A DNA stretch of 64,000 nt, taken from the IMG/VR virus record IMGVR_UViG_2863357390_000001; one strand, written 5' to 3'. The stretch is from a virus. Its lineage: Duplodnaviria; Caudoviricetes. This document shows positions 2,825 to 23,727 of the stretch, in pieces; position 1 is the first letter of the stretch; every line of letters begins with the position of its first letter. A program made the position numbers and the translations under genes. The notes under the pieces are model-generated. The model saw only the letters and a program-made list of their open reading frames with translations, ran no database searches and had not been told where the DNA came from.

Positions 2825-3579
2825 CCTCGCCGACCCGACTCGTCTGGGGACTGGCCGGACACCCCGAGCCGACCGGGGCCGTCGCGAACCTGTTCGCCGA
2901 CCGGCCCGGGATGTGCGTGATGTGCGGGCTGTCCGCCGACCGCACCGCCGACGCCGCCCGTGCGACCGGCGCGAACTTCACCGACCAGTACCTGTACCGC
3001 CGGCCGGACTCGGACCGGATCTGCCCGGCGTGCGTGTGGTGCTGCTCGGGGAAACCCCCGGCGACGCTGCGCATGTGGACGGTCGTCGCCGCGATCGGCG
3101 CGACCCTGCCCGACAACCACCCCAAGTGCTGGCTGCCCAGCCAACCAGGTTTGTGCCTGACCAACCGGGCCGCGCCCGGTGTCGTCGCCGACATCCTCGC
3201 CGCCCCACCGGAGGGGGCGTGGCTGGTCACCGTCGCGACCTCCGGGCAGAAACACGTCCTGCCCTACGGGAAAGTCAACCACGGCGGTCCCGAGTGGACG
3301 GTCCGAATGGAGAACACCACGATCACCTCCAACGCCCCCACGTGGCGCCGCGTCCTGGGCCACGCCGCCACACTGCGCGCGGCCCGCCACACCGGCGACG
3401 ACCTCGCCGCCGGGCGGCCCACCCTCGCCGCGATCCGCACCGCCGACGACCTCGACACGTGGAACCACCACCACGCCGGACTCGCCGACCACGTCGGCTC
3501 ACCACTACTCGACCTAGCCCTCTGGTGCCTGACCAAGGAGACGATCCATGACCACGCCCACGCCGCCCCCGTCGCCTGA
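2821..3579 (+). CDS. csf1: Type IV Csf1 (Cas8-like) subunit
   Basis: Zn-finger CVMCG...CPACVWC and SGQKHVL motif; first gene of the IV-B order. Confidence 0.8.
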   Translation: MTSPTRLVWGLAGHPEPTGAVANLFADRPGMCVMCGLSADRTADAARATGANFTDQYLYRRPDSDRICPACVWCCSGKPPATLRMWTVVAAIGATLPDNHPKCWLPSQPGLCLTNRAAPGVVADILAAPPEGAWLVTVATSGQKHVLPYGKVNHGGPEWTVRMENTTITSNAPTWRRVLGHAATLRAARHTGDDLAAGRPTLAAIRTADDLDTWNHHHAGLADHVGSPLLDLALWCLTKETIHDHAHAAPVA

Positions 3580-3907
3580 CGAGCTGATCCAGGCCACCGT
3601 CGCCTGGCTCAACGCGCTGCTCGACTCGGCCTCGGCCGACGTGCTCGGCGTCGCCCACTACTGGGACCGCGCCCAGTCCGCGCTGATCACCGCCGCCACC
3701 GCCGACACGGTCGGGGAGGCGGTCACCACCGCCGCCCGCAAACTCCAGATCGAGACCACCCAGGCCCGCACCGACACCGCGCTGCTGGAGGCGTGCGCGG
3801 TGATCGCCGCCGACTACCCCGCCTGGCAGGCGAGGGTGGAACGCGAAGCCGTCTACCTCGTCGCCCTCGCCCGTGTCGCCCGCACCGCCCGGAAGGCCAC
3901 CCGATGA
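3548..3907 (+). CDS. cas11: Type IV-B small subunit (Cas11-like)
   Basis: Small all-helical protein (YWDR...ARKLQI) between csf1 and csf2. Confidence 0.75.
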   Translation: MTTPTPPPSPDELIQATVAWLNALLDSASADVLGVAHYWDRAQSALITAATADTVGEAVTTAARKLQIETTQARTDTALLEACAVIAADYPAWQARVEREAVYLVALARVARTARKATR

Positions 3908-4794
3908 CCACCACGCTGACGATCCCGTTCACCGCCACCCTGGTGGCGCCGCTGCACCACGGCGCCGGCACCGCCGGCAACACCAGCCTCATCCGCACCC
4001 AGCGGATGGTCCGCCCCGACGGCACCGTAGCGCAGGTGCCGTTCGTGTCCGGGAACTCGCTGCGCCACGGCCTGCGCGCCGGCCTGGCCTGGCACGCCGT
4101 GCGCACCCTGGGCGTCGAGGACGGCGGCCTGTCCAAGGCCGTGGTCGACCTGCTGTGGTCCGGCGGCGCGATCACCCGCACCGGCTCCCAGACCGACCTC
4201 GCGCTGCTGCGCCGGGTCGAGCACCTGTACCCGCCGCTCGCCCTGATGGGGTACAGCGCCGCGGCCGACATGACCGCGGGCACCCTCGCCGTCGACCAGC
4301 TGCACCTGGTCTGCGCCGAGAACGCGTGGCGGCTGCCCGGGCGGCTGGCCGGCGACCCACGCGCCGCACGGCCGGCGTCGGCGTTCCGCGGCGAGGAATT
4401 CGGGACTCGCCACGACGTCGCCGGGACCCCGGTCGACCGGTACACCGCGCTGGCCGACGAGCTGGTCCCCACCACCACCCAGATGATCTACGAGCACCAG
4501 GTCGTGCTGCCCGGTGCCGCCCTGTACGGCGGGCTCGTGCTGACCCCGGCGGCCACCGACGCACAGCTCAGGGTCCTGCTCGTCGCCCTCGACGAGATCA
4601 TGCCCGCCGACCGGGACGGCGTCCGCGTCCTGCAACTTGCCGCGAAGCGCGGCGTCGGCTACGGCACCTGCCGGGTCGACCTCGACCTGCCGGACGGCCT
4701 GCCCACCCCCGCCGACGCCCGCGCCTGGTGGGAAGCCCACCTCGTCGAGCACGCCGAGGAGATCACCGCCCTGTGGCAGGAGATCGTCGCGTGA
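3904..4794 (+). CDS. csf2: Type IV Csf2 (Cas7-like backbone RAMP)
   Basis: TLVAPLHHG, VPFVSGNSLRHGLR, LLWSGG, G-rich AKRGVGYG. Confidence 0.9.
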   Translation: MTTTLTIPFTATLVAPLHHGAGTAGNTSLIRTQRMVRPDGTVAQVPFVSGNSLRHGLRAGLAWHAVRTLGVEDGGLSKAVVDLLWSGGAITRTGSQTDLALLRRVEHLYPPLALMGYSAAADMTAGTLAVDQLHLVCAENAWRLPGRLAGDPRAARPASAFRGEEFGTRHDVAGTPVDRYTALADELVPTTTQMIYEHQVVLPGAALYGGLVLTPAATDAQLRVLLVALDEIMPADRDGVRVLQLAAKRGVGYGTCRVDLDLPDGLPTPADARAWWEAHLVEHAEEITALWQEIVA

Positions 4795-5504
4795 GCCCGG
4801 TCGTCCCCGCCGGCACCGTGGTCGACACCACCGACGACCCGCGCTGGCAGCCACTGGTCGTCACCGCGACCCTGACCGAGCCGGTCGTCGGCCTGGACTC
4901 GCAGCCGCTGTGCCTGGACGGGCCGCTGGCGTGGTGCGCCGCGCAGCTCGCCCTGGCCGACGAGGCCGGCCTGCCGCCGCTGCGGCACGACTGGGCACCC
5001 GACCTCGCCCTGCCCCTGGCCACGTGGACCGCCGCGCCCTCCCGGCCCGACACCGACTCGCGGCTGCGCGCCGCCGACGGCGAACGGGTGTGGGGGTGGG
5101 CGTGCTCGGCCGCGTCGTGGACCGCGCTCGGCCACACCACCGTCGAGATCCGCCGCCGTCCCCCGGTCGGAGAGATGGCCCGGTTCACCGCGGACGGCAA
5201 GCACCACTCCGGGTTGGGCCCGTACAAGGCCCGGGACACGCCGATGGCCGCGACCTGGGTCGACACGGTCGTCTGGCACGCCCTGGGCGACCCCGACGCC
5301 GTCGCCGGGCTGCTCGCCCACCTGGGACACCTGGGCCGGGCGACCCGGCACGGCCACGGCCGCATCCAGACGATCACCGTCGAACCCGGCCGGGACCGGG
5401 ACGCGTGGCGGTCCCGGCCGCTGCCCGACCCGACCGGCCCGGCCGGGTCGATCCGCGCCCCCTACCACCACCACTCCCGGAGGATGCCGTGCCGCACCCC
5501 GTGA
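4791..5504 (+). CDS. csf3: Type IV Csf3 (Cas5-like RAMP)
   Basis: LDGPLAW, WACS, G-loop LGRATRHGHGRI. Confidence 0.85.
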   Translation: MSPVVPAGTVVDTTDDPRWQPLVVTATLTEPVVGLDSQPLCLDGPLAWCAAQLALADEAGLPPLRHDWAPDLALPLATWTAAPSRPDTDSRLRAADGERVWGWACSAASWTALGHTTVEIRRRPPVGEMARFTADGKHHSGLGPYKARDTPMAATWVDTVVWHALGDPDAVAGLLAHLGHLGRATRHGHGRIQTITVEPGRDRDAWRSRPLPDPTGPAGSIRAPYHHHSRRMPCRTP

Positions 5505-6394
5505 TCGCCTGGGACGGGCAGCCGGTCGGCGACCGCTACCCGGCGATGGACGTCGTCCCCGGCGTGCTGCCCTGGTCCACCCTGGACCAGGACTCCCGGC
5601 CGTGGCAGGACCGCAAGAAGCACTGGCACGACCTGGGCGTCCGCGACACCACGCCCCGCGACCACGCCGCGGGGATGATGACCACCGGACGGCACGGCGC
5701 CCTCTCGGGCGGGGTGTCGCGGTTCGACCCGGTGCTCGCCGAGGTCCTGTACCGGTGGTACTGCCCGCCGGGCGGGCGGGTGCTCGACCCGTGCGCGGGC
5801 GGACCCGTACGCGGCCTGGTCGCCTCCCACCTGGGCCTGGAGTACGTCGGCGTCGACCTGGACGCCGACCAGGTCGACGCGAACACCGCCGTCGCGGCGG
5901 GTTCGCCGTACCCGTCCCCGGCCTGGTTCGCCGGGGACGCGCTGACCTACGCCTGGCCGGTCTCCGACGGGGACGCGGACATGGTGCTGACCTGCCCGCC
6001 CTACCACGACCGGGAGCGCTACTCCGACGACCCCCGCGACCTGTCCACCATGGACTGGCCCGCGTTCCTCGACGCCCACCGCGCCGTGGTCGGCCGGGCC
6101 GCCGCGGCGCTGCGCGAGGACCGGTTCCTCGCGTGGGTGATCTCCGACGTCCGCGACCGGCACGGCCACCTGCGCGGCCTGCCCCGCCACGCCTGGCAGC
6201 ACCTGGAGGACGCCGGACTGCACGTCGTCAACGAGCACGTGCTGCGTGCCCCGGTCGGCACCGCGCACAAACGCATGCGCCCGCCGTGGCAGGCGTGCCG
6301 CACCGCGACCCGCCGCCACCAGATCGTCCTGGTCGCGGTCAAGGGCGACCGGCGTGCCGCGACCCGCGCCGTGTCCGGGGGTGGCGGGTGCTGA
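5501..6394 (+). CDS. Phage-type N4C/N6A DNA methyltransferase
   Basis: FDPVLAE, SAM-binding VLDPCAGG, catalytic TCPPY followed by ERYSDDPRDLS. Confidence 0.85.
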   Translation: MIAWDGQPVGDRYPAMDVVPGVLPWSTLDQDSRPWQDRKKHWHDLGVRDTTPRDHAAGMMTTGRHGALSGGVSRFDPVLAEVLYRWYCPPGGRVLDPCAGGPVRGLVASHLGLEYVGVDLDADQVDANTAVAAGSPYPSPAWFAGDALTYAWPVSDGDADMVLTCPPYHDRERYSDDPRDLSTMDWPAFLDAHRAVVGRAAAALREDRFLAWVISDVRDRHGHLRGLPRHAWQHLEDAGLHVVNEHVLRAPVGTAHKRMRPPWQACRTATRRHQIVLVAVKGDRRAATRAVSGGGGC

Positions 6395-7161
6395 TCGACT
6401 CGACCCGGATCACCGACCGCGACCGCGACCACTGGGACGCGCTGGAGCGCTACGACCGGATGCTCGCCGCCGACCCGGCCCTGGACCGCAAGGCCGAGAG
6501 CGCCGTCGCCGAGGTCCGGGCGTTCCTGGACGCGGGCGAGGCGTACGTGTCGGTGTCCTGGGGCAAGGACTCCGTCGTCGTCGCCCACCTGGCAGCCCTG
6601 GCCGAGCTGACGGTCCGGGTGGTGTGGGTCCGGTCGGTCCTGTTCGAGACCCCCGAGTGCGACGCGGTGCGCGACGCGTTCCTCGACGCCCACCCGCAGG
6701 TGCGCTACGAGGAGATCGCGGTCGAAATGCGGAACCCGAAACGCGGCGAACCGGGCTACGACACCCGGCACGCCGACCCGCACGCCGACCACCAGGACGT
6801 CCTCCGGGAGACCCTGACCGGCCGGTGGATCTCCGGGCTGCGCGGCGAGGAGTCCCGGATGCGCCGCATGTCCATCGCCCACCGGGGCCTGTCCACGAAG
6901 AACACGTGCCGGCCGATCGGCCGGTGGGACGCCACGCACGTGTTCGCCTACCTGTGGCGCGAGAAACTCCCGGTGCACCCGGTGTACGCGATGACCGCCG
7001 GCGGACACTACGACCGCCGCTGGCTGCGGGTGCACCCGCTGGGGTCGGCACCCCCGGCCCGGTCCGCCGTGCACGGCCGGGACATGGACTCGTGGGAGGA
7101 CGCCTACTACGGGGACGTGCTCGCCGCCGCGAGGCAGGCCCGCGCCCACCTGTGGCGGTGA
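6388..7161 (+). CDS. CysH-like (PAPS reductase / PP-loop) protein, type IV-B associated
   Basis: PP-loop VSWGKDS, GLRGEESRMR, PIGRW...VFAYL. Confidence 0.85.
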   Translation: MLIDSTRITDRDRDHWDALERYDRMLAADPALDRKAESAVAEVRAFLDAGEAYVSVSWGKDSVVVAHLAALAELTVRVVWVRSVLFETPECDAVRDAFLDAHPQVRYEEIAVEMRNPKRGEPGYDTRHADPHADHQDVLRETLTGRWISGLRGEESRMRRMSIAHRGLSTKNTCRPIGRWDATHVFAYLWREKLPVHPVYAMTAGGHYDRRWLRVHPLGSAPPARSAVHGRDMDSWEDAYYGDVLAAARQARAHLWR

Positions 7162-7174
7162 CCGGCTGAACGAC

Positions 7175-7207
7175 CAACGCCCCGCCCGACAACCGGGCGG
7201 GGCGTTG
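7175..7207. terminator. Intrinsic terminator closing the cas operon
   Basis: 13-bp inverted repeat CAACGCCCCGCCC/GGGCGGGGCGTTG between convergent genes. Confidence 0.8.
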
Positions 7208-7224
7208 CGCACGCCGGCGGAAGC

Positions 7225-7686
7225 TCAGGGGCCGTCGGGGTAGACGACGGCGCGGAGTGCCGCGGCACCGATCCTGTAGATGGCCTCGGCCGCGTCGTCG
7301 CTGTGGTCGATCCACCAGCGGGCATCGGTCCGACCGGTCAGCACCTCGCGCATGGCGTCGATCCAGACGTCGCAGAACGCCGGGGTGAATCCGTTGACGC
7401 CGATCGACGCGACCAGCTCTTCGACGTGGCGTTCGACAGCGGGCGCGGCCCTGCCTCGGATGGCTTCGGCCCAGGCGATCTGTTTGGTGCTGCCGGTGAG
7501 CGGGGGCAGGTCGAGGTCGGCGGTGACCCGGGCGCCGGCGCGGTGTTCGGCGGCGGTGTGGCAGGCGAGGCAGGCGCGGCGTTCCTGGCGGCGGACTTCG
7601 CCGCGGTGTTGGTTGCGGACGTTGGTGCCGGTGATGTTGATGGTGTCCTCGTGTCCGCAGGTGCGGGTGATCGTGTACTGGGCCAT
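7225..7686 (-). CDS. Hypothetical phage protein
   Basis: CGH...CLAC and LTGSTKQIAWAEAIR motif; GGAGG RBS. Confidence 0.75.
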   Translation of the reverse strand: MAQYTITRTCGHEDTINITGTNVRNQHRGEVRRQERRACLACHTAAEHRAGARVTADLDLPPLTGSTKQIAWAEAIRGRAAPAVERHVEELVASIGVNGFTPAFCDVWIDAMREVLTGRTDARWWIDHSDDAAEAIYRIGAAALRAVVYPDGP

Positions 7687-7709
7687 GGTGTCCTCCGTCG
7701 CTCACCCAA

Positions 7710-7754
7710 ACCGTACAAGTCATGCTTGCAATACACAAGTGGTGCTTGTACGGT
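7710..7754. promoter_or_regulatory. Palindromic divergent promoter pair
   Basis: + strand TTGCAA-17-TACGGT with ATG 6 nt later; - strand TTGTGT-17-TACGGT; 10-bp inverted repeat. Confidence 0.75.
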
Positions 7755-7760
7755 CGTGCC

Positions 7761-8345
7761 ATGCGATTCGACACCACCCGCCCCGCCGCCGCCTCGCCCC
7801 AGCACTACCACGCCACCCCACCCGAACGACCGTTGCCCGAGTACGCCGAGCTGACCGACGACGAGTTCACGGCGCTGTACCGCGACACCCTCGGCCAGGG
7901 CGAAGCCCCCGCCGAGTACTTCGCCGCCGAGCTGCTCCGCCGATTCCCCGGCCTGCAGTTCGCCCACCGCCAGTACAAGGACTCGTTTCGCCGCGACATG
8001 GACGAAACCACCGCGACCGAGAAGGCCGCCGGCACGTGGAACGTGATGAAGGTCGTCCCGGTCGAGCCGTCGGAGCAGACGCAGCGACTCGCCGAGGCGT
8101 TCGCCGCGCTGGTCCGGGCGACCGCCTACGACGACGACACCAGCCTGCGCGCCCGACCCACCATCACCCTCGACGAGATCCTGGAACGCGCGCAGATCAA
8201 GCGCGACACCTGGCACGGCTACATCAGCCGCGGGCAGGTCGGCGGCAGGATCGGCCACGACTGGCACACCGGAGAGCCGGTATGGGACCGGGACGTGGTC
8301 GAGTACTGGATGCGCCGGCGCCGTACCCCGGCCCGCAGCCGGTAG
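7761..8345 (+). CDS. Protein with C-terminal AlpA/MerR-like HTH, probably leaderless
   Basis: ITLDEILERAQIKRDTWHGYISRGQ...VWDRDVVEYW. Confidence 0.7.
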   Translation: MRFDTTRPAAASPQHYHATPPERPLPEYAELTDDEFTALYRDTLGQGEAPAEYFAAELLRRFPGLQFAHRQYKDSFRRDMDETTATEKAAGTWNVMKVVPVEPSEQTQRLAEAFAALVRATAYDDDTSLRARPTITLDEILERAQIKRDTWHGYISRGQVGGRIGHDWHTGEPVWDRDVVEYWMRRRRTPARSR

Positions 8346-8365
8346 CCGCGCCCGCGAACAGACCT

Positions 8366-8395
8366 GTGCCCCGCCACCTCCGGGTGGCGGGGCAC
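8366..8395. terminator. Intrinsic terminator
   Basis: 13-bp perfect stem followed by TTT. Confidence 0.8.
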
Positions 8396-8414
8396 TTTCG
8401 CTCGTCCCGATCCG

Positions 8415-8660
8415 TCAGTCGAGGGTGTCGCGCACCGATTCGGCGTGCTGGCGTGCCGACTGCTCGGCAACACTCGTCAGCCCGCCTCCGATAGCCGAGG
8501 CTTCGGCGTTCGTCAGCGAGATGGTGGCCCACTGCCCCCCGGCGTCGGAAATCCGAAGCCGCACGTCACCGCCGGCTTCGGGTGTGACCGAGAATTCGAT
8601 CGGGCCTTTCCACAAGACAGGGCAGCTCGGCGGCCCGTATGGCCGTGGCGTGTCGCACAT
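8415..8660 (-). CDS. Small hypothetical protein
   Basis: AGGAGG RBS before ATG. Confidence 0.6.
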   Translation of the reverse strand: MCDTPRPYGPPSCPVLWKGPIEFSVTPEAGGDVRLRISDAGGQWATISLTNAEASAIGGGLTSVAEQSARQHAESVRDTLD

Positions 8661-9996: not shown

Positions 9997-10092
9997 TCAC
10001 GCGGTCCTCTCGGCGGTGTCCTCGGCGCGGCCGCGGATGTCCACGTCGGCGCGCGCGTACTCCTGCTGGACGTCCGAGGACGCCAACGGCAT
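9997..10092 (-). CDS. Possible 31-aa peptide
   Basis: TGATG coupling to the upstream gene. Confidence 0.35.
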   Translation of the reverse strand: MPLASSDVQQEYARADVDIRGRAEDTAERTA

Positions 10093-10490
10093 CAGTTCGC
10101 CTCCAGCCAGCCGAGCACGGTGGACCGCTCCACCCCGGCCCGGCGGGCGAACGCGCCGGGCGAGTCCGGGTTGTGCCGCCCACGGACACCGACCCGGACG
10201 GTCATCACGGCGACTTGGCGCAGCGCGGCCAGCGCTTCGATCTCGGCCCGGCGTGCCCTGGTCCGCTCGGCCGCGAGGGTTTCGACGAGGTCGTCCTCGC
10301 CGAGCAGGACGCGGTAGGCGGCGGTGAGCGCGGCGGTGCGTTCGTCCTCGTTGTCGGGGTCGGGCCACGTGGCGGCGATCCGGTCGGCCTCGTCGCGCAG
10401 CCGTGCGAGCCGTTCGTCGTCGAGGCCGTGGTCGTCGCCGAGCCACGCCTCGATCTGGTAGTCCTGCACGGGTCGGGGGGTGTCAGTCAT
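10092..10490 (-). CDS. Actinophage protein with C-terminal HTH
   Basis: GAFARRAGVERSTVLGWL HTH; GAGGAAG RBS. Confidence 0.75.
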   Translation of the reverse strand: MTDTPRPVQDYQIEAWLGDDHGLDDERLARLRDEADRIAATWPDPDNEDERTAALTAAYRVLLGEDDLVETLAAERTRARRAEIEALAALRQVAVMTVRVGVRGRHNPDSPGAFARRAGVERSTVLGWLEAN

Positions 10491-10971: not shown

Positions 10972-11283
10972 CTACTCGCCGTCGCCGTTCCCGTGGTCGC
11001 GGTACCACCGCAGCCACGACCAGGGCCTCACCCACACACCCCACGGCATCATCGACTCCTCGGTCCCGGTCAACCCCGCGACCCCGACCTCGATCAGCCG
11101 CATCCCGCCCAGGACGACCACCACGACCGCGGGCGCGACGGCCGGGGCCAGCCACCACGGCCACCGGACGTCCCGGGCCACGTCGGACCACCTGTCCGCC
11201 TCGACCGCGACGACCACGCACCACCCCAGGCCCAAGGCCGCGCTGACGGTTTCCCTGAGCAGCTCCCGGTTCGTCTTCTTCAC
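10972..11283 (-). CDS. Small membrane protein
   Basis: GTGA coupling to cas8e; two hydrophobic segments. Confidence 0.6.
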   Translation of the reverse strand: MKKTNRELLRETVSAALGLGWCVVVAVEADRWSDVARDVRWPWWLAPAVAPAVVVVVLGGMRLIEVGVAGLTGTEESMMPWGVWVRPWSWLRWYRDHGNGDGE

Positions 11284-13151
11284 GACGACTCCTCTCCTTC
11301 CCGTTCCGTGTCGTCCGGTGCGGCGCCCGGAGCACGTCGCCCCGGCGTGGTCAGCGCCGCCTCGGGATCCCACCCGTTGATCAGCCGCGACCGCAGCGCC
11401 GACACCGAGACCACGCAGCGCTCGTCACGCGCCCACTGCGCCTGGGTCTTCTCCTCCCCGAACGCCACCAGCATCGGCGACGGCCTCCCCCCGCCCGCAC
11501 CGCGTCCGGACCCGGGCTTCCGCCCGCCGGACCGCCGGGCCCTCGCGCCCGCCGCCGCGGCGGCGAACGCCCGCGCCTGTACCGGGGTGACCTTTCTCGG
11601 ATAGGGCTTGGTGGGCAGGTCGGTGAAGTACGCCACGTACCGCTCCAACGCGACCCCGGCCTTCGCACGCATCAACATGCCCGACGAGCCGCCGAACGGC
11701 AGCCGGTCCAAGGCCTGCGCGCACAGCCCGACCAGTCGCCGGCCGTAGTCCAGGCACACCCCGGCCAGCTCCTCGTGGGACGGGTCGGTGTCCAGCGCGG
11801 CCAGCCGGCGGGTCGTGTCGGACCACAGCCGCTCCAGCGCGTAGGCGTCGGGCGTGAGCCTGTCGCCGAGGGTGACGTGCGGCAGCGCCTCGGCCGCGGC
11901 GACGGCCAGGCCGCGCAGCGTGGCCGCCGTCTGGTGGTCGAGGAACGCCACCACGCGCGCGGTGGGCTCGGCGGCGTGCACCCCGACCGGTCCCAGGTCG
12001 ACCCGGCCGTTGTGGTCGCCGACGGCCACGGAGCCGTGCGTGTTGTAGACGGCCTGGGACACCCACACCCGCAGCGGCAGGTCGGCGGGCAGCAGGCCGC
12101 GCCGGGCCGCGCCGACGGCGTGCACCAGTGCGCCGCTGTGCCAGCGGCGGGGGTCGGCGGCGGGCGGGACGTGCAACGGCCGGGTGAGCAGCCACCACCG
12201 GGGCTGGTGGCCGTACGGGTCGAACGCGTCGGGGTCCGCCGTGCCCTGGCCGTCCCGGGAGTCGCGGCACAGCAGGGTCGGGTCCAGGCGGTGGTAGTGG
12301 TTCCAGTACCCGGCGACCCGGTCCCCGTCGTGCCACGCCCACCGGGCCACCCGGCCGTCCCGGTCGGGGAACAGCCTCAGCCGGCGCGCGGGCATCGTGG
12401 CCAGCTCCAGCCGCCCGGCCGGGACGCGGTCGACGCGGATGCCCGCCGGCGGGCCCTCGTCGCGTTCCCACTCCGGGGCGTCGCCCGGCGCGCGGGGCGC
12501 GGGCGGCAGGTTGAGCAGCAGCGTGTCCTTGAGGGTGGCGCCGAGCACGACCAGCCGGACGGTGGCGCCCAGCGGGCCGATCCGGGACCCGTAGACCTTG
12601 TTCCCCTTCCCGGCGGGGTCGCCGGGCGCGGCGGGTTTGATCCCGCCGGTGTCGTAGGCCATGCGGACGAGCAGGTTCCGGGCCGCCTCGCCCGGCTCCC
12701 ACGGCGGGTGGTCCGCGCCCCGGTACAGGCCGGGGTGGAACCACGCCGCGCCCTGCCCGCCCAGCCAAGCGGGGTGCAGCTCGACCGCGCCCCGGTTCGG
12801 CTCGGCCAGGTGGGCGCACTGGGCGAAGGGCCGGTCGGGGTCGTACAGGTCGAACCGGTTCGCCCACCGGTCGAGGTAGTCGGCGATCCGGCCGTGCGGG
12901 TCCAGGGTCGGCGCCCGCCAGGCGGCGTCCCACCCGTCGTCGTCGACGGGTCCGGCGGCGGCCTCGTAGACGGCCAGCAGCAGCCGCAGCAGGACCAGGC
13001 CCTCGCCGGACAGGCCGAGGCGGGCGAGGTTGTGCCGGTGCGCGGACTGCAGCGCCTCGCGCAGTCCCACCTCCCGTTCGCCCTCGCCCCCGGTGGTGTA
13101 CACCGGGATCCAGGGCCGGGAGAGCAGGTCGTAGGACGGGGCGCCGGTCAC
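11280..13151 (-). CDS. cas8e: Orphan type I-E Cas8e (Cse1/CasA) homolog with C-terminal extension
   Basis: YDLLSRPWIPV, EVGLREAL, LLRLLLAV, RFDLYDPDRPFAQ, EAARNLL...AYDTGGIK, LGATLKDTLLLNL. Confidence 0.85.
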   Translation of the reverse strand: MTGAPSYDLLSRPWIPVYTTGGEGEREVGLREALQSAHRHNLARLGLSGEGLVLLRLLLAVYEAAAGPVDDDGWDAAWRAPTLDPHGRIADYLDRWANRFDLYDPDRPFAQCAHLAEPNRGAVELHPAWLGGQGAAWFHPGLYRGADHPPWEPGEAARNLLVRMAYDTGGIKPAAPGDPAGKGNKVYGSRIGPLGATVRLVVLGATLKDTLLLNLPPAPRAPGDAPEWERDEGPPAGIRVDRVPAGRLELATMPARRLRLFPDRDGRVARWAWHDGDRVAGYWNHYHRLDPTLLCRDSRDGQGTADPDAFDPYGHQPRWWLLTRPLHVPPAADPRRWHSGALVHAVGAARRGLLPADLPLRVWVSQAVYNTHGSVAVGDHNGRVDLGPVGVHAAEPTARVVAFLDHQTAATLRGLAVAAAEALPHVTLGDRLTPDAYALERLWSDTTRRLAALDTDPSHEELAGVCLDYGRRLVGLCAQALDRLPFGGSSGMLMRAKAGVALERYVAYFTDLPTKPYPRKVTPVQARAFAAAAAGARARRSGGRKPGSGRGAGGGRPSPMLVAFGEEKTQAQWARDERCVVSVSALRSRLINGWDPEAALTTPGRRAPGAAPDDTEREGEESS

Positions 13152-13864
13152 GCGTCGTCACCGGTGGGCCGGGCGGCGTGGACGGTGTCGTGGCCCTCGG
13201 TGGTGACGGTGACCACGAGGATCGGGTCGTCGCCGTCCCGGCGGACGGTGACGCGCACGGCGTCGTAGGCGGCGGTGTCGTCGAGGTCCCACTCGTCGAC
13301 GTACCGTCCGGCTAGGCGCAGCGCGGCGTCCTCGTGGTCCTCCTGCCCGCCGTACTCGTTCTCGCCCAGCATGTCGCGGTCGGATTCGACGCGCTGCCAG
13401 TCGCCGTCGATCTCGTGGGTCTCGATGGTGTAGGCGAACTTGCACTGGGGGACGCCGTCGACGTCGGTGCGGTGCCACCAGACGGTGCCCTGCTCGGCGC
13501 AGTCGGCGAGCTGGCGGACCTCGTACTCGTAGCGGGCGTCGGCTTCGGTCCGGTCGTCGGTGTCGGCGTAGTGGGTGCCGTTGTTGTCCATGGTGCGCAC
13601 GGCCCACCGGACGACCTGCTCGGCGTGTCCGCGTCGGGAGAGCACGGTGTCGGTGTTCGGGTCGGTCACGGGCGGCTCCTCGACCCAGACGCGGCCGGCG
13701 ACGTACTGGATGAGGTCGACGCCGAAGGTGGTCTGGCCGATCTTGTCGGTGCAGTCGGAGGAGCGCTTGACCGATCCCCGGTTGATGGTCTCGACGAGGG
13801 CGTCGACGGTCTCTTTCAGGGCTTCGACGACGGTGGTCTCGTAGTCGCTGCGGAGGATGCGCAT
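13148..13864 (-). CDS. Acidic hypothetical protein
   Basis: GGAG RBS; GTGA-coupled to cas8e. Confidence 0.7.
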   Translation of the reverse strand: MRILRSDYETTVVEALKETVDALVETINRGSVKRSSDCTDKIGQTTFGVDLIQYVAGRVWVEEPPVTDPNTDTVLSRRGHAEQVVRWAVRTMDNNGTHYADTDDRTEADARYEYEVRQLADCAEQGTVWWHRTDVDGVPQCKFAYTIETHEIDGDWQRVESDRDMLGENEYGGQEDHEDAALRLAGRYVDEWDLDDTAAYDAVRVTVRRDGDDPILVVTVTTEGHDTVHAARPTGDDA

Positions 13865-13894: not shown

Positions 13895-13974
13895 GTGCCA
13901 CCACCGTAGCCAAACCAACAAAACATAGTCAACTAATTGCGGAGGTTTTGTTGTTTGAACTAGGGTGGTGGCAC
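13895..13974. promoter_or_regulatory. Palindromic divergent promoter pair
   Basis: 25/30-bp inverted repeat; + strand TTGCGG-18-TAGGGT, - strand TTGACT-18-TACGGT. Confidence 0.8.
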
Positions 13975-13993: not shown

Positions 13994-14332
13994 GTGATCA
14001 CCACCGACCTGGACACCGTCCTGGCCACCCTCGACCGCACCGACCTGCACTGCCGCTGCCCCCGCCCCGACACCTGCCGCGACGTCCACGCCGAGCACGA
14101 GGACCTCCCGCGCGGCGAGTACGGCCTGGCCTTCGTCCACCCCGACGGCCGCCTGCACCGCGCCGCCAACGCCGAGGCGTTCGGCCAGCAGGGCGCCCAG
14201 TACGCGACCCTGGCCGACGTGCTCGCCGCACTCGACGACTGGACCGAGTACCTGCACGAGCTGGTCGTGGTCCACCGCGACACCCGACAGACCCGCCCCG
14301 CCGCCGACGTCCACCGCGCCCGGGCCTGGTAA
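13994..14332 (+). CDS. Hypothetical phage protein
   Basis: GGAGG RBS, GTG start. Confidence 0.7.
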   Translation: MITTDLDTVLATLDRTDLHCRCPRPDTCRDVHAEHEDLPRGEYGLAFVHPDGRLHRAANAEAFGQQGAQYATLADVLAALDDWTEYLHELVVVHRDTRQTRPAADVHRARAW

Positions 14333-15193: not shown

Positions 15194-15928
15194 TCATCGG
15201 GTGATCCAGGGCCACACGCCGGGCAGCAGCAGCACGGCGGCCACCACGCACACCGGCCACACCACCCACAGCTCGACCCGGCCCCCGGTGCGGAACCTCC
15301 ACCAGGGCGGCGGGCCGAGTTCGTACCACGTCTCCCCGAGGATCGGGACCGGCCAGAGGATCGGGCAGCCGGAGATGGTCATCGCGTCGCCCAGGCAGTG
15401 CACCAGGCAGCCCACGCCGACCGCGATCCCCAGCCAGCCGGTGATGGCGGCGAGTTCGGCGCCCGGGTCGCCGCGGCCGACCCACACCAGCCACACGGTG
15501 ACCACGGCGGCGGCGACCCAGTCGCCGAGGGCGTCGACCGCGAGCAGCACCGCGACCGCGAGCACGACCACCGCCGCCCACGTCCCGGACGAGGACACCC
15601 ACCACGTGGTGGCCGCGCCGACGAGTATGGCGAACGCGAGGGTGTGGGTGAGGTGGCGGTGGGTGCCGTCCAAGTCCTCGTCGCGCGGGCCCCGGGTGGC
15701 CCGGTAGGCCAGCCCGGACAGTCCTTGCACGATCCGGGACAGCAGCCGGGTGACCGGGGCGGCGAACCGGCTCGCGCGGGAGCCGGGGTGGTCGAGGTCG
15801 GGCAGGAGCGCGGACCCGGCGGTCACGGCGGCGACCGTGACGGCCTGGCCCAGGCCGTGGGCGCCGAGCAGCGGGGCGAGGGCCAGTCCGGCGCACCAGC
15901 CGGTGAGCGCGTGCGTGGAACCCAGCAT
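15194..15928 (-). CDS. YdjM-like membrane metal-dependent hydrolase
   Basis: THAL, LPDLDHP, HRHLTHT, HCLGD motifs. Confidence 0.85.
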   Translation of the reverse strand: MLGSTHALTGWCAGLALAPLLGAHGLGQAVTVAAVTAGSALLPDLDHPGSRASRFAAPVTRLLSRIVQGLSGLAYRATRGPRDEDLDGTHRHLTHTLAFAILVGAATTWWVSSSGTWAAVVVLAVAVLLAVDALGDWVAAAVVTVWLVWVGRGDPGAELAAITGWLGIAVGVGCLVHCLGDAMTISGCPILWPVPILGETWYELGPPPWWRFRTGGRVELWVVWPVCVVAAVLLLPGVWPWITR

Positions 15929-15942
15929 CAGGGGTCTCCCGG

Positions 15943-17115
15943 TCAGACGACGGCGCGCAGGCCGTGGCGCAGGTCGGCGTTGAGGGCTTCGCGGATCTCG
16001 CGGGCGCGGGCGGCTCCGACGGACAGGGCTTCACGGACGGCCTGCTCGGTGTAGCTGCCCCGCGCGCCGGGCTGGAGCCGACCCGACTCGATCAGTCGAC
16101 GGGCGGCGTCGAGCTGTCCGTCGAGAGTCGGGTCGGTCGGGTCGGCATCGGAGTCGGGTCGGGTCGGGTCGGGTTCGGTCGACTGCTTCTGAGTCGGGTC
16201 GGCCAGTCGGGTTGCCGGAGTCGGGTCGGCTTCCGGCTCGCCGGTCGGGTCGGGTGAGTCGGCTACCGGGTCGGGTCGGTCGGTCGGGCAGTCGGCTTGT
16301 CGGGTCGGGTCCGGTTCCCGCGCGGTCGGCAGGGTCGGCTTGCCCGACTCGACCGGTCGGGCCGGGTCGGGTCGACTACCCGACTCACCCGACTCTCGCA
16401 GGTCAGGCCCAGAGTCGGGTTCGAGTCGGGTACCCGACTCGGCCACGCGAGTCGGGTACCCGACCCGGCCCGTCGGGTCGGGTGGGACCGGCGAGTCGGC
16501 AGGTGAGTCGGCTACCGGGTCGGGTCGGGTCGGCTTCGCGGAGTCGGCCGGCTCGACGTGGGTCGGGTAGTCGGACAGGCGACCGGTCGGGTAGCCGACC
16601 GGCCCGACCGCGAGTCGGGTACCCGACCCGACCCGACCCGACCGGGAGTCGAGCCAGGCCCGCAGCACCGCGCCGAACGCATGCACCAGCACGCCGACCA
16701 TGATCGGCACGGCGACCGACAGCAGCATCACCACCAGATCCCACCGGCCCGGCAGGTGCCAGCCGGCCATCGAGTCGGGCATCACCGCCCGGGTCGTGCC
16801 GCCGGGCACCGCGATCGAGTGCCCGGCGAGGTTGACCACGACCGACAGGCCGGTGGCGCCGACCAGCAGGCCCAGTCCCCAGGCGCGGACCTGCCGGTCG
16901 CGGGCGACGACGTGCATCACCGCCCCCGCGGAGGCGGCGAGGTCGAGGACGACCGGCCCGAGCGGCGCGGTGCGGGGCCCCCAGCCGCCGAGCATCATCA
17001 CCGGCAACTGCTGCTCGAACGACAGGACGAACGCGCCGCCGGCCAGGGGCAGCAGCAGGGCGCCGAGGACGGCGACGAGCCATCCGGGCGTGGGGGTGGT
17101 GTGGGGTGCGGTCAC
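15943..17115 (-). CDS. Spd/DUF2637-like transfer-spreading membrane protein with C-terminal HTH
   Basis: Four TM helices (AFVLSF...LD...LSVVVN), low-complexity linker, terminal HTH; start could be ATG 17391. Confidence 0.7.
   Translation of the reverse strand: MTAPHTTPTPGWLVAVLGALLLPLAGGAFVLSFEQQLPVMMLGGWGPRTAPLGPVVLDLAASAGAVMHVVARDRQVRAWGLGLLVGATGLSVVVNLAGHSIAVPGGTTRAVMPDSMAGWHLPGRWDLVVMLLSVAVPIMVGVLVHAFGAVLRAWLDSRSGRVGSGTRLAVGPVGYPTGRLSDYPTHVEPADSAKPTRPDPVADSPADSPVPPDPTGRVGYPTRVAESGTRLEPDSGPDLRESGESGSRPDPARPVESGKPTLPTAREPDPTRQADCPTDRPDPVADSPDPTGEPEADPTPATRLADPTQKQSTEPDPTRPDSDADPTDPTLDGQLDAARRLIESGRLQPGARGSYTEQAVREALSVGAARAREIREALNADLRHGLRAVV
16081..16642. repeat. Dense GTCGG/CCGAC pentamer array with palindromes
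   Basis: Tandem (GTCGG)n; GTCGGGTACCCGAC palindrome three times. Confidence 0.85.
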
Positions 17116-17139
17116 GGCGTCTTCCTGGTGTTTTGCCTG

Positions 17140-17303
17140 GTGAATGGGGGTGTGAAGGGGGTGAATGCGAGGGTGAGTCGGTTCGGTGTCACCGGGTCTC
17201 ACTCCGCTCTCACTCCGCATCACTGCGGCTTTCACCCCCGTGTCACCCCGTATCACTGCGGTCTCACCTCCGGTCTCACCCCGCTTGTCACCCCCGCTCT
17301 CAC
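17140..17303. repeat. Helically phased TCAC/GTGA repeat array (clt-like candidate)
   Basis: 11 TCAC motifs spaced 10-12 nt plus 4 inverted GTGA motifs, directly downstream of traB. Confidence 0.7.
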
Positions 17304-17387
17304 CCCCTCCGACCTGTAACTGCGTGTCCGTCGGCCGGGGTGACGCGTCGACGGACGGACCGGCCGCCTCCGGGACTTCGGCGCGGA

Positions 17388-19400
17388 TCATGCCGGGACC
17401 AACTCGCGCACGAACCTGAACCCGGTGTCGGTGCGCTCCAGTTGCCCGGTGTCCACACGGCCGTTCAGCGACTTGTAGACCCACGCCGGGGACCGGACCG
17501 CCTTTCGGGCCACGTCGACCAAATCCCCGGCCCGGATCTCCTCCACGCCCTGGGCCTGGAGTTCGAGCAGCCGCTGCTCGAACAGCGCGGCGGCCTCGGC
17601 GGGCGTGGCTTTGGGTCCGGCGGGTCGCTCCCAGTCGCCGTCCGTGCCGCCGATGGGCAGCGGGTCGTCGATGCCCGGCTGCACGGAAGGGTCCGGGTCG
17701 TCGGCACCGGGCCGCCACGGCTCCTCGAAGTCGTCGCCGAGCAGATCCCGCACCGGCGCCTCGTCGTCTTCGTCGTCCACGACCGGCACCGGCACCGGGG
17801 TGGGCGGCACAACGGGTGCTGCGGGTGCGCTCGGGGCCGCGCCGACCATGCTCTCGACCGGAACCCGGGTGGTGTACAGCTCGCCGAACGCCGCCGTGGT
17901 CATCGCGTCCAAATCGTCGCCGTGCAGCCGTGCCCAGCGGGCCAGCATCCGGAGCTGGTCGTCGGAGATCCCCAGGGTCCGGCCAGGGGTGGTCCACAGC
18001 GCCCGGTCGACGCCGGGGGCGACCAGGTAGCAGCACGCGGGCCGTTCGTTCTTCCACCGTGACGGGTCGGCACCGGCCTCCAGGACCTCGTCGGGCATGG
18101 CGAACGCGGCGTCTTCCTGCTCGGCGACGCCGAAGCAGAGCACCGCGCCGAACTGCGCGCGCGCGGCCACGTCGAGCGACACGTACGAGGGCCTCTGCAT
18201 GGACAAGGTGAACTCGACGCCCACCGACCGGATGCGCTCCATGGACTGGACGAACGCCTTGTCGCCCAGGAACAGGCCGGATCCCTCCTCGATGTGCACG
18301 CGCAGCCGGGGAATGCCGCACCCGGGCTCCCAGTTCTTCAGGCCGCGGCGGCCGAGGTAGTCGGCCCGCGCCGGTACGACCTTGTCCCGCAGAGCCCGCA
18401 TCAGCGCGTGGGCCTCGGCCTCGGTGCGGATGACCCACCGGATCCCCTCGGCCAGCGGCCCCAGGGACTGCGCGCCCTTCACCGTGTCGACGTAGATCGT
18501 GTAGGTGTCCCGGCGGGTGAACTCCTCGGCGAAGATCACGTAGGCGCCGAAGGTCTTGCCCGCACCGGTCATTCCCATGATCAGGAGCGCGGTCTCGCCC
18601 CATCCGGGTCGGTGCAACGGCAGCATCATCGGCCGCCCGTCCTCGTACACCCCGATCCGGTACGGCTGCGCCGGCGTGCCGCCCAGCGCGGACGGTTCGG
18701 TGTACGGGGTGGACTCGCGCAGCATGTCCCGGCGGACCAGGGTCAGCTCGGCCTGCGACGAGTCGTCCGGGGACGGGGTGATGCGCGCACCGCCCGGCGG
18801 GAGCCGGAGCACCGACTCGAGCTTGGACAGGGAGCGCTGGGCGTCGTCGACGGTCTCGCCGCCCTCCAGCGACAGCGGCCCGGCCAGCCGGTCCTCCGAC
18901 TTCTCCTTCGGCGTGTAGGCCGAGCCCTCGAGCGCACCGCCGACCTTGGTGGACACCTCGTCCCACAGCGACCGGCGGGCGCCCTCGGTCGCGTCCTGGG
19001 TGCGGCGCAGCACCCGGCGTACGATCCACGCCCCGGTCACCGACGCCCCCGCCCACCCCCACACGCCCAGCAGCGGCTGCGACACCGGCCCGGCCATCAC
19101 CGCGGCGATCTGGTGGGCGCCGACCAGGATCGGCGTGCCCAGCGCGAACACCCGGCCCAGCATGTTGCGCCGTCGGTCCAGGTGGTGGACCAGGACGACC
19201 ATGCCCGCGGTCGTGGCCCCGATGCCCAGGGTCATCCACGGCAGCGACTCCGGCGTGGCCAGTCCCCACAGGGTGCACGACAACGCGAAGTCGCCGGCCA
19301 GTCCGGCGACGGGCGCGGCGGCCACGGCCAGGCGGGACGCGGCGTGCTTGGCCACCCGGCCCCCGGCGTCCTTCGACGCTCTGATCAGCGGGTTAACCAC
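17388..19400 (-). CDS. traB: FtsK/SpoIIIE-like TraB plasmid-transfer DNA translocase
   Basis: N-terminal TM region, Walker A GMTGAGKT, Walker B VHIEEG, SMQRPS, C-terminal wHTH. Confidence 0.85.
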   Translation of the reverse strand: MVNPLIRASKDAGGRVAKHAASRLAVAAAPVAGLAGDFALSCTLWGLATPESLPWMTLGIGATTAGMVVLVHHLDRRRNMLGRVFALGTPILVGAHQIAAVMAGPVSQPLLGVWGWAGASVTGAWIVRRVLRRTQDATEGARRSLWDEVSTKVGGALEGSAYTPKEKSEDRLAGPLSLEGGETVDDAQRSLSKLESVLRLPPGGARITPSPDDSSQAELTLVRRDMLRESTPYTEPSALGGTPAQPYRIGVYEDGRPMMLPLHRPGWGETALLIMGMTGAGKTFGAYVIFAEEFTRRDTYTIYVDTVKGAQSLGPLAEGIRWVIRTEAEAHALMRALRDKVVPARADYLGRRGLKNWEPGCGIPRLRVHIEEGSGLFLGDKAFVQSMERIRSVGVEFTLSMQRPSYVSLDVAARAQFGAVLCFGVAEQEDAAFAMPDEVLEAGADPSRWKNERPACCYLVAPGVDRALWTTPGRTLGISDDQLRMLARWARLHGDDLDAMTTAAFGELYTTRVPVESMVGAAPSAPAAPVVPPTPVPVPVVDDEDDEAPVRDLLGDDFEEPWRPGADDPDPSVQPGIDDPLPIGGTDGDWERPAGPKATPAEAAALFEQRLLELQAQGVEEIRAGDLVDVARKAVRSPAWVYKSLNGRVDTGQLERTDTGFRFVRELVPA

Positions 19401-19401
19401 G

Positions 19402-19782
19402 TCACCCCTCCCACGTCGTCTTCTTGCGCTTCTGCTCCGGGGTCATGCCGCGTTTGAAGTACTTGAAGTACAGGGCGTACGACTTGACGGCCATGCGTCC
19501 GGCGTGCAGCACCGCGTCGGCGGACTGCCGCAGCGCCCAGGCGACGATCTTCGCCCGGGCCTTGGCGGTCAGGCGGCCGAACGGGTCGCTGATCTGGCGG
19601 CCCTCCTCGTCGTAGCGGCGGAACTGGAAGGTCGCCAGGCTCACCTGGACCTGGTCGGCCTGGTAGGAGAGCAGGAACGCGAACTCCCGGCACGCGTCGC
19701 GTACCACCACGGTGAATGCCTCCAGGCTGGCGCCGGATTGCAGTTCCACCCGGTACAGGTCGTCGAAGCGGTCGTCACTCAC
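19402..19782 (-). CDS. TraA-like plasmid transfer protein
   Basis: Basic helical protein (AKARAKIVAWAL...YFK) directly upstream of traB. Confidence 0.55.
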   Translation of the reverse strand: MSDDRFDDLYRVELQSGASLEAFTVVVRDACREFAFLLSYQADQVQVSLATFQFRRYDEEGRQISDPFGRLTAKARAKIVAWALRQSADAVLHAGRMAVKSYALYFKYFKRGMTPEQKRKKTTWEG

Positions 19783-20051
19783 CGCTGGTCCTTTCCGGTG
19801 TCGAGCGCGGGGGAATGGGGAGGGAAGAACTCGGGGTCGTCGGGATGCGGGTCGCGGCCGAAGTCGCGGACGGCGAGGATCGTGTGCACGGCCTGGGCAC
19901 GTCCGGCGCACCACCGGCCGGCCCGCTCGACCACGGCCACGGCGGCCAGCAGCACGGCCCGTGTCGTGGCCAGCACGAGCACGGCGGCCAGCCACCCGTG
20001 GTAGGAAGCCAGCCACCACGCCGTGACCAGACGGATGCGCATTCCGATCAC
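19779..20051 (-). CDS. Small hypothetical membrane protein
   Basis: Coupled within the transfer operon. Confidence 0.55.
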   Translation of the reverse strand: MIGMRIRLVTAWWLASYHGWLAAVLVLATTRAVLLAAVAVVERAGRWCAGRAQAVHTILAVRDFGRDPHPDDPEFFPPHSPALDTGKDQR

Positions 20052-20551
20052 CGGGTCAGCCGATCCAGGTCACGGCGCTCCAACCGGCCGTGGTCACGCA
20101 ACGCGGCGGCCACGGCGGTCACCGCGTCCCAGTTGAGGTCGAGCAGACCCTCGACCTCGACGTCGAGCCCGGCCGCGTCCAACTCGGACTCCCGATCGCG
20201 CAGCGCCGCGGCGACCTCCCGGAAATCGCCGCGGTTGCACCGGGCCCGGTGCACCTGGCGGCGGGCGGCCGAGGGCCGGACGCCCCGGGCGACGCGGCAG
20301 CGGATCTCGGCGGCCGGTCCGACCGCGGCGACCACGGCGGCGACGTCGGGGTGCTCGTCCACGCGGCGGGACAGCTCGCTGCGGCCCTGCACGTGCCAGT
20401 CGGACAGCCACGGCTTGCGCCAGGCCAGCCATACTCGGGCGACGGGCAGCCCGAGCAGTATGCCGATCACGGCGTGCGCGGCCTCGTGGACGGAGATCGC
20501 GTGCAAGTCGTCGGCGAGGCGTTCGGCGACGGCGGCGGGCGGGGCGGTCAC
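20048..20551 (-). CDS. HExxH zinc-metalloprotease-like protein (M41/M50-like)
   Basis: VHEAAHAVI, AVGPAAE, GDF motifs. Confidence 0.7.
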   Translation of the reverse strand: MTAPPAAVAERLADDLHAISVHEAAHAVIGILLGLPVARVWLAWRKPWLSDWHVQGRSELSRRVDEHPDVAAVVAAVGPAAEIRCRVARGVRPSAARRQVHRARCNRGDFREVAAALRDRESELDAAGLDVEVEGLLDLNWDAVTAVAAALRDHGRLERRDLDRLTR

Positions 20552-21159
20552 CGGTCGTCCCCGGTCTGCGGGGTGGACAGCCAGTCGGCGAGCCGGGTGA
20601 TCACGACGGGGTCGTTCGAGCCGGACAGCCGCCGGGCCTGCTCGTAGCGGTCGGTGTTCTCGGCGGACACGGGGGCGAGGACGGGAGCGGCGAGCCGTTT
20701 GGCCGTCTTGATCGCGTCGCGCACGATCCGGGCGTGGTCGAACCCGAGCCGGTCGTACAGGCCGTCGTCGACGCGCCGCCATTCGGCGGTGGCCGCGTCG
20801 TCCCCGGCGACCGGGACGGGCAGGAACGTGGCCACGGTGACGTAGGCGAGGGTGGCGTAGTCGCCCCGGGGGTCGCGGCCCGGGTCGGCGTAGCCGCCGA
20901 CGTGGTGCCAGCGGCCGGGCACGACGATCCCGGTCTCCTCGGCGAGTTCGCGGATCGCGGCGGCCAGCGGGGTCTCGTCGGGGTGGACGTGCCCGCCGGG
21001 CAGCGCGGGTTGGCCCTGGTAGGGGTCCTTGCCGCGGGCGACGGTGAGCACCCACCAGTCGTGGCCGACGCGGTGCAGGACGACGGCGTCGGCGGTGAGC
21101 GCGGGATGCCGGCGGTCCGGCCGGTCCGGGTTGTGGGGTGTGCTGGTACCCGGGAGCAT
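20548..21159 (-). CDS. NUDIX hydrolase
   Basis: ALPGGHVHPDETPLAAAIRELAEETG, RDPRG, GDDA, LGFDH. Confidence 0.93.
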   Translation of the reverse strand: MLPGTSTPHNPDRPDRRHPALTADAVVLHRVGHDWWVLTVARGKDPYQGQPALPGGHVHPDETPLAAAIRELAEETGIVVPGRWHHVGGYADPGRDPRGDYATLAYVTVATFLPVPVAGDDAATAEWRRVDDGLYDRLGFDHARIVRDAIKTAKRLAAPVLAPVSAENTDRYEQARRLSGSNDPVVITRLADWLSTPQTGDDR

Positions 21160-23403: not shown

Positions 23404-23727
23404 TCAGTGGTCGTGGTCGGGTTCGGGTTGGGGTTCGGGTAGGGCCAGGAGGCCGGCCACGGCGTCGGCGAGCGTTCCGTCGTGGTGCCAGGTGGCGTGT
23501 TCGCCGTCGCGGCGGTGGGCGGTGGCGTCGTCCGGGCCTCGGGTGGCCATGACGTCCACTACCGCCGTGCCGGGCCACACGCGCATGCCGGAGAAGCCGC
23601 ATTTGCCGTCCTCGTAGGCGATACGCAGCGGGAACCACTTCCACGGGCCTTGTGTGGCGAGCAGGTCGAGGTCGGGTACGTCGGCTAGCCATTCGGCGAG
23701 CGCTTCGGGGGTCAGGTCGTCGGCCAC
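23404..23727 (-). CDS. Hypothetical protein
   Basis: GGAG RBS before GTG. Confidence 0.65.
   Translation of the reverse strand: MADDLTPEALAEWLADVPDLDLLATQGPWKWFPLRIAYEDGKCGFSGMRVWPGTAVVDVMATRGPDDATAHRRDGEHATWHHDGTLADAVAGLLALPEPQPEPDHDH

Follow-up and report, generated by a model that had tools for sequence, protein, structure and literature searches.

We analysed a 64,000-nucleotide window of viral DNA (IMG/VR virus record IMGVR_UViG_2863357390_000001; Duplodnaviria, Caudoviricetes) that belongs to a prophage of an actinomycete, and found that it encodes a Cas8e-like protein outside any operon of type I-E CRISPR genes. Judged from the predicted structure and from profile comparisons, the product is a structurally complete Cas8e over residues 1–508, followed by a flexible linker and a short predicted DNA-binding module, and its gene is paired with an upstream gene, g21, for a very acidic protein. 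Sequence searches indicate that such solo Cas8e-tail proteins are a rare actinomycete lineage on mobile elements and not a one-off fusion. From sequence and context we infer, tentatively, that the two genes serve in counter-defence and that I-E components of the host are engaged by them unproductively. The features that define the pair are as follows.

11280–13151, minus strand: Cas8e-like gene; 623 amino acids (aa) plus stop, GTG start, 4-nt overlap (GTGA) with the stop of g21
11628–13151, minus strand: Cas8e body, aa 1–508; N-terminal globular domain and C-terminal four-helix bundle, according to the model, Foldseek and the profile match to 3WVO
11487–11627, minus strand: linker, aa 509–555; Gly/Ala/Arg-rich and basic, net charge +9, isoelectric point (pI) 12, low predicted local distance difference test (pLDDT) score
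11337–11486, minus strand: tail module, aa 556–605; beta-hairpin and three helices, a predicted homing-endonuclease-type DNA-binding module without a nuclease domain
13148–13864, minus strand: g21; 238 aa, pI 4.4, net charge -27, very acidic; ATG start with GGAG upstream

The Cas8e-like protein was searched against hidden Markov models (HMMs) of Pfam, TIGR and PADLOC, and matched PF09481 (CRISPR_Cse1) at 1.6e-47 (163 bits; cut-off 24.7), TIGR02547 at 7e-27 (94.4 bits; cut-off 70.05) and four PADLOC models for Cas8e (2e-47). These single-sequence matches reach aa 8–305 only, and BLAST identity to the two Cas8e proteins of the host itself is about 35% and limited to the first ~280 aa; the C-terminal half is too diverged for pairwise detection. 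A profile built from the subfamily, when compared with solved Cse1 structures, aligned over profile positions 2–462 (3WVO, 1.8e-58). The AlphaFold model (pLDDT 85.5, predicted template modeling (pTM) score 0.81) contains the two-domain Cse1 fold, with an N-terminal globular domain and a C-terminal four-helix bundle, and Foldseek aligned it with Cse1 crystal structures over 515–580 columns (4H3T at 4e-25, 3WVO and 4AN8; target TM score 0.70–0.81). The core motifs GIK...GDP..KG, LLLNLPP and TWP.RR.RL are common to this protein and canonical Cas8e. The open reading frame (ORF) is uninterrupted, with a GC content at third codon positions (GC3) of 0.96. An earlier reading of the letters alone (hereafter the original prediction) had seen Cse1 over roughly the first 530 aa, then a basic Gly-rich linker and a tail resembling a module of phage HNH endonucleases; the Cse1 part is borne out by the family models, the subfamily profile and the Foldseek matches, and the linker by its composition and charge.

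The surroundings of the gene are not those of a cas8e gene in a cas operon. No cas matches were obtained for the adjoining genes, so the gene is not part of a cas3-cas8e-cse2-cas7e-cas5e-cas6e operon. No Cas7e, Cas3-HD or second Cse1 was found in the 64-kb window, all of these being located at the two host I-E loci, and the minimal gene set of cas3-less I-E systems (cse2-cas7-cas5-cas6e) was likewise not found there; of such an operon the window has the Cas8e-like gene only. The sole other I-E gene of the prophage is a divergent cas6e-like gene at 2192–2824, 8.46 kb away. Here too the original prediction, which had noted the lack of cse2, cas7e, cas5e and cas3 and a cas6e about 8.5 kb away, was correct. 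Domain and fold searches revealed no enzymatic domain in either the Cas8e-like protein or g21. The full-length protein had no tblastn match among 50,697 phage records, and its C-terminal half had none among the PLSDB plasmids except one match to the tail only.

The tail is predicted from the models to fold separately (pLDDT about 90–95). In annotated phage genomes it matched segments of HNH or homing endonuclease genes of Bacillus, Salmonella, Vibrio and Thalassomonas phages (tblastn E 6e-7 to 4e-3), and phrog_3377, annotated as HNH endonuclease, matched it weakly (E 0.006), in agreement with the likeness that had been noticed by eye. This likeness is confined to the 50-aa tail: an HNH catalytic domain was not found, and Pfam at E <= 1 returned Cse1 only. 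On this evidence the tail is most simply read as a short DNA-binding module of the kind carried by homing endonucleases. No Pfam model exists for the module, and a host-genome search at E < 0.01 detected no further copy of it. A tail profile of six sequences, searched against 1.8 billion proteins, retrieved 8,863 cluster representatives at E <= 0.001; the module (45–50 aa) often occurs in tandem, with up to 28 copies per protein, and a few of its carriers (among proteins P0125–P0274) have a weak REase_MTES_1575-like domain.

The original prediction missed the conserved acidic partner as well as the existence of a family. The leftward operon reads inverted repeat, g21, Cas8e-like gene, g19, and from this arrangement g21 and the Cas8e-like gene are predicted to be a dedicated pair that is co-transcribed and translationally coupled. 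A homolog of g21 lies directly upstream of the Cas8e-like gene in eight of the nine tailed solo loci that could be judged, the window included and L023, with its short upstream gene, left out. Such homologs were recognised by tblastn at L006, L007, L009, L010 and G220 and by hhalign (97.6%) at L011; none was present at L013 or at the operon-type locus L012. The homolog search added only four further members. Every member of the family is strongly acidic (net charge -21 to -41). Conservation centres on roughly the first 140 aa, and the model gives a confident helix-sheet-helix core. No Pfam or PHROG match was obtained for g21, and its fold had no Foldseek match in the PDB at E <= 0.001. A WGR domain and other rows from VIA-align were considered and rejected, as the best Z of 6.0 is within noise and not credible. 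The remaining features of this region are listed below.

13895–13974, no strand: inverted repeat of 30 nt, 83% complementary with a 20-nt spacer, bracketing the AT-rich g21/g22 intergenic region; putative operator/promoter
10972–11283, minus strand: g19; encodes a short product containing a hydrophobic, membrane-like stretch; start overlaps the Cas8e-like stop by 4 nt (GTGA)
13994–14332, plus strand: g22; 112 aa, divergently transcribed, no family match

g19 is not kept beside relatives of the Cas8e-like gene. An operator-like inverted repeat adjoins g22. No helix-turn-helix, as expected of an aca-like regulator, was detectable in the g22 product by domain or PHROG searches, and a sigma-70 consensus scan of the g21/g22 intergenic region found no promoter.

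A search of 5.8 billion proteins for relatives of the Cas8e-like protein yielded about 27 actinomycete homologs with 96–98% of the length aligned at 37–47% identity, from genera such as Actinosynnema, Amycolatopsis, Nocardia, Streptomyces and Kitasatospora; the matches of canonical Cas8e proteins were limited to the N-terminal 42%. Among the 28 family members, 23 carry the tail, one of them in two copies, and three have further Cys-rich extensions. In a maximum-likelihood tree, from whose columns the tail was dropped by the fill filter, all 28 form one clade (Shimodaira–Hasegawa-like approximate likelihood ratio test (SH-aLRT) 99), which a long branch separates from canonical Cas8e, and the tail-less (SH-aLRT 97) and tailed (84) members are sister groups. 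The tailed loci (L006/G351, L007, L009, L010, L011, L013, L023, G220 and the window) are all solo and are located in prophage-like, conjugative or defence-island regions. Three loci of tail-less members were examined. Two of these, L012 (a Streptomyces plasmid) and L022, have the gene at the head of a cas8e-cse2-cas7-cas5-cas6e operon that lacks cas3 and cas1/2, and in L021 the gene is solo. A divergent gene with PAPS_reduct and DUF3440 domains (an IbrA-like architecture) lies upstream in all three (L012:4578–5780, L021:5466–6704, L022:4226–5449), a neighbourhood that parallels the association of type IV-B systems with cysH. At family level, at least 3 of 400 genomes carry the subfamily (two full-length, one tail-only), and the order level added none.

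One member of the family has a second orphan large subunit beside it. On a Streptomyces xiamenensis contig (L011), a solo, divergent Cas8c/Csd1-like gene (7162–8595, plus strand; 477 aa; Pfam 9e-17, PADLOC 3e-15) lies directly upstream of the g21-like and Cas8e-tail pair, so that orphan large subunits of two subtypes stand in one gene string. No Cas8c-like gene was found in the prophage of the window. Two side observations were made on the relatives. Homologs of the window genes g13/g14 (7225–8345) recur at L010:15904–16846, about 4–5 kb downstream of the Cas8e-tail gene in Nocardia, which suggests an accessory gene pool shared between the two loci. Two distant matches, P0103 (1034 aa) and P0041 (709 aa), are fusions of canonical-type Cse1 with Cas3 C-terminal domains (PF18395 with or without PF22590, plus PF09481).

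The host of the prophage has CRISPR systems of its own that are directed against the element. Its genome contains two I-E loci in canonical gene order and one I-C locus, all intact-looking, and all three cas3 genes encode an HD domain within a long uninterrupted ORF. Ten CRISPR arrays with 172 spacers were identified (at 97059, 846462, 918640, 923078, 949142, 2455333, 2556862, 3161277, 5448897 and 6232559), seven with I-E repeats and three with 37-nt repeats. Of these spacers, 21 match a region of about 75 kb (genome positions 1,091,830–1,167,097) that corresponds to this prophage, 13 of them inside the window. Sixteen are I-E spacers, six matching perfectly and the rest mostly with 1–2 mismatches; AA lies directly 5' of the protospacer in 13 of the 16, compared with a background of 1.6% (binomial P about 3e-21), and the base after AA is the terminal base of the repeat, which indicates an AAG-type protospacer-adjacent motif (PAM). 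The other five come from I-C arrays, two of them perfect and four flanked by 5'-TTC. The following perfect protospacers lie in the window.

10087–10119, plus strand: I-E array at 949 kb, spacer 1; CAA flank; the self-target closest to the Cas8e-like gene
23596–23628, plus strand: I-E array at 3.16 Mb, spacer 28; GAA flank
30188–30220, minus strand: I-E array at 97 kb, spacer 13; CAA flank
40561–40593, minus strand: I-E array at 2.557 Mb (beside I-E locus 1), spacer 21; GAA flank
49136–49168, plus strand: I-E array at 2.557 Mb, spacer 19; CAA flank
28028–28062, plus strand: I-C-type array at 918 kb, spacer 6; CTC flank

Since the lysogen is viable under 21 self-targeting spacers, the host cas operons should be either silent or inhibited. 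A mobile element, a host with a cognate I-E system and PAM-flanked self-targeting spacers together constitute the type of context in which anti-CRISPRs occur. In the single comparison genome, Actinosynnema sp. G351 (L006), one of 77 spacers is a near-perfect match 52 kb from the gene. Host spacers also match, perfectly or nearly, at genome positions 1576384, 1708121, 2381685, 5606408, 6846656 and 6850157, presumably other mobile elements.

The need for an I-E inhibitor follows from the coexistence of intact-looking I-E loci with 16 I-E spacers that match the prophage, and a copy of Cas8e is a plausible source of one: Cas8e docks onto the backbone of Cascade and is responsible for recruiting Cas3, and of all Cascade subunits in Escherichia coli it is bound the most loosely. 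We therefore lean, with reservation, towards the counter-defence reading, which we picture as follows. The lineage, which resides on mobile elements, would have lost cse2, cas7, cas5 and cas6, and it lacks cas3, cas1 and cas2 as well; at the C-terminus it would have gained the basic flexible linker and, attached to it, the homing-endonuclease-type DNA-binding module. g21 and the Cas8e-like gene would be expressed together from a promoter flanked by the operator-like inverted repeat. The Cas8e body would then be a stand-in for the large subunit and would engage, unproductively, either the Cas5e/Cas7e/Cse2 backbone or Cas3, and as a result interference at the PAM-flanked protospacers of the prophage would fail, with the tail and the acidic, possibly DNA-mimicking g21 modulating or localising that activity. 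The string of solo Cas8c-like and Cas8e-tail genes at L011 is suggestive in this regard, as it would parallel the I-C and I-E pair of the present host. There is also precedent in AcrIB4, a homolog of the Cas8b C-terminus/Cas11 that has been proposed to poison Cascade (10.1101/2025.06.06.658234). A bolder and somewhat less likely generalisation is that full-length 'Trojan' large subunits (Cas8e, and Cas8c in L011) serve as anti-CRISPRs of actinomycete mobile elements, plugging into the host Cascade or capturing Cas3, while an acidic DNA-mimic partner and a DNA-reading tail park the disabled complex. If true, a new way of inhibiting CRISPR would have arisen from a cas3-less Cascade that mobile elements carry.

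Several points weigh against the counter-defence reading. The resemblance to either host Cas8e is low and confined to the N-terminal 280 aa, and the length of the branch indicates that the lineage is old and not a recent capture tuned to the Cascade of this host. The pair is also present in G220, a genome that is about 100% complete and in which neither a Cas7e match nor I-E arrays were found. A plain decoy would need neither a sequence-reading tail nor a partner. Self-targeting implies some inhibition or silencing without pointing to the Cas8e-like gene; the IV-B/cas6e cassette described below, or small unrecognised acr genes in the prophage, would be equally placed to provide it, and the I-C self-targets call for a separate explanation. 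The decoy that poisons host Cascade, as put forward in the original prediction, thus retains circumstantial backing from the host loci and their spacers, and is weakened by the distance from the host Cas8e and by the occurrence of the pair in a genome without detected Cas7e. A transcription regulator that hijacks Cascade, likewise put forward there, would be a further possible role.

Nearly as likely as counter-defence is Cascade-independent DNA targeting, which we consider a possible role. The tail would replace RNA-guided recognition, and the Cas8e body and g21 would act at the sites it reads, excluding competing elements, regulating, or recruiting a host helicase-nuclease; the pair would then serve the competition or defence of the element and would not be an anti-CRISPR. 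Homing endonucleases and thousands of multi-repeat proteins employ the module of the tail, which fits such a role, as do the conservation of a dedicated partner, the presence of the pair in G220, where no I-E system was detected, and relatives that sit among defence-type genes, e.g. NACHT/STAND and GmrSD. The sister clade moreover holds cas3-less Cascades, the output of which is presumably not Cas3 cleavage, and for the 'minimal I-E variants' signalling instead of cleavage is proposed in PMC12231136. However, the searches gave neither protein an enzymatic domain with which to act, and the striking self-targeting context would be left unused.

The two other explanations turn on the rest of the prophage. 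The protector might be something else, namely the IV-B/cas6e cassette as a CRISPR RNA (crRNA) sink, small acr genes or silent host cas operons, with the Cas8e-like gene left over from a minimal I-E system and either decaying or neutral. Self-targeting singles out no gene, Cas8e cannot account for the I-C self-targets, and many small unannotated genes are close by; a remnant, however, would hardly have kept an intact ORF with a GC3 of 0.96 and a confident predicted fold, nor its full length at 37–47% identity across genera together with tail and partner. Because the ORF is intact, conserved and confidently folded, decay does not fit, and we regard this explanation as unlikely. More improbable still is that the protein is an accessory or alternative large subunit of the IV-B complex of the prophage, through which, together with cas6e, host I-E crRNAs would become usable by the Csf complex. 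The prophage does carry a cas6e-csf1-cas11-csf2-csf3-methyltransferase-cysH cassette about 4 kb off, and the tail-less relatives adjoin genes of the PAPS-reductase family as IV-B adjoins cysH. Yet csf genes are near none of the nine other tailed solo loci (checked by tblastn with the window genes on six loci with 10-kb flanks and by Pfam lists on seven; two loci had short flanks only), the cassette already holds csf1, its cas6e gene (g6) falls outside this Cas8e lineage, and the Cas8e-like gene, which has a partner of its own, belongs to a separate operon on the other strand. This role had been offered as an alternative in the original prediction, with co-occurrence of solo cas8e and cas6e-IV-B loci in other phages named as a check; the role is not supported, the window being the only one of the tailed solo loci examined that has IV-B.

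Compared with canonical Cas8e/Cse1 (CasA), the protein has the same two-domain fold, significant HMM matches and core motifs, but its gene is prophage-encoded outside a cas operon and has an added linker, tail and acidic partner. Among the closest described systems are minimal type I-E variants of Streptomyces without cas1, cas2 and cas3 (Shmakov et al. 2018, as related in PMC12231136). The tail-less sister loci probably correspond to these: the same cas3- and cas1/2-less I-E operon is found in L012 and L022, in plasmid or variable regions, and some loci of the lineage likewise have STAND-type neighbours. In contrast to the variants, no part of the Cascade backbone is left beside the window gene, the tail and g21 have been added to it, and the tail-less loci adjoin PAPS_reduct and DUF3440 genes.

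Other systems share single elements of the architecture. AcrIB4 and AcrIF3, the latter reported to be a mimic of the Cas8f helical bundle (10.1101/453720), are also products of mobile elements; each is derived from, or imitates, a portion of a Cascade large subunit and interferes with the same system. They are, however, small fragments or mimics of one sub-domain, in contrast to the putatively inhibitory, full-length large subunit with DNA-binding module and partner found here. The Cas8-HNH and Cas5-HNH type I variants (PDB 8YB6, 8ZLU, 8Z0L), which were among the structural matches, are cas3-less and have a Cascade subunit fused to a homing-endonuclease-derived part; unlike the Cas8e-like protein, which has the DNA-binding module only and no Cascade, they keep the HNH nuclease and a crRNA-guided Cascade. 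CasPR proteins are small AP2-domain phage anti-CRISPRs that block cas transcription (10.64898/2026.02.23.707548) and thus also counter CRISPR through a domain that is common in homing endonucleases and bound to specific DNA, but the tail of the Cas8e-like protein is not AP2. The Cas8e-tail architecture is not covered in the CasPR paper or in that on telomeric I-E CRISPR-associated transposons, and no description of a solo Cas8e with a DNA-binding tail and an acidic partner was found in the searchable literature.

Cas-derived inhibitors have so far been small fragments or mimics, and that literature has no description of a large subunit that is solo, conserved and full-length and that comes with a DNA-binding module and a partner of its own. 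The lineage would record an evolutionary path from canonical I-E through a cas3-less Cascade on mobile elements to a solo Cas8e whose targeting comes from a protein domain instead of a crRNA. Whichever function holds, the tail-plus-Cas8e architecture could reveal activities of Cas8e that survive outside Cascade, and a strain whose prophage is targeted 21 times by apparently intact I-E and I-C systems is a natural and directly testable system.

The window has a GC content of 72% and spans positions 1,106,492–1,170,491 of a single-contig actinomycete genome of 7.35 Mb. The element is a temperate siphovirus-type prophage with TerL, portal, major head protein (MCP), tape measure (TMP) and, at the right edge, a tyrosine integrase. 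A search for att sites revealed no direct repeat of at least 18 bp common to the integrase flank and the 40 kb that precede the window on its left; host spacer matches reach 14.7 kb left of the window. The type IV-B cassette (2192–7161, plus strand) consists of cas6e-like, csf1, cas11, csf2, csf3, DNA methyltransferase and cysH-like genes, in that order, and lies about 4 kb from the Cas8e-like gene on the opposite strand. Its cas6e-like gene (g6) is very divergent and unrelated to the Cas6e of this Cas8e lineage, and no CRISPR array was found in the window; from its gene content, Cas6e together with a nuclease-less Csf complex is a candidate crRNA sink. ARAGORN predicted a tRNA-SeC at 63788–63883 (plus strand) inside the integrase coding region, which is probably a false positive. 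On the minus strand at 15194–21159, the window encodes a YdjM-family membrane protein, a 670-aa phrog_24831 protein with a weak, TraB-like FtsK/SpoIIIE match and a NUDIX protein, a block that by gene content looks like a conjugation-type module inside the prophage.

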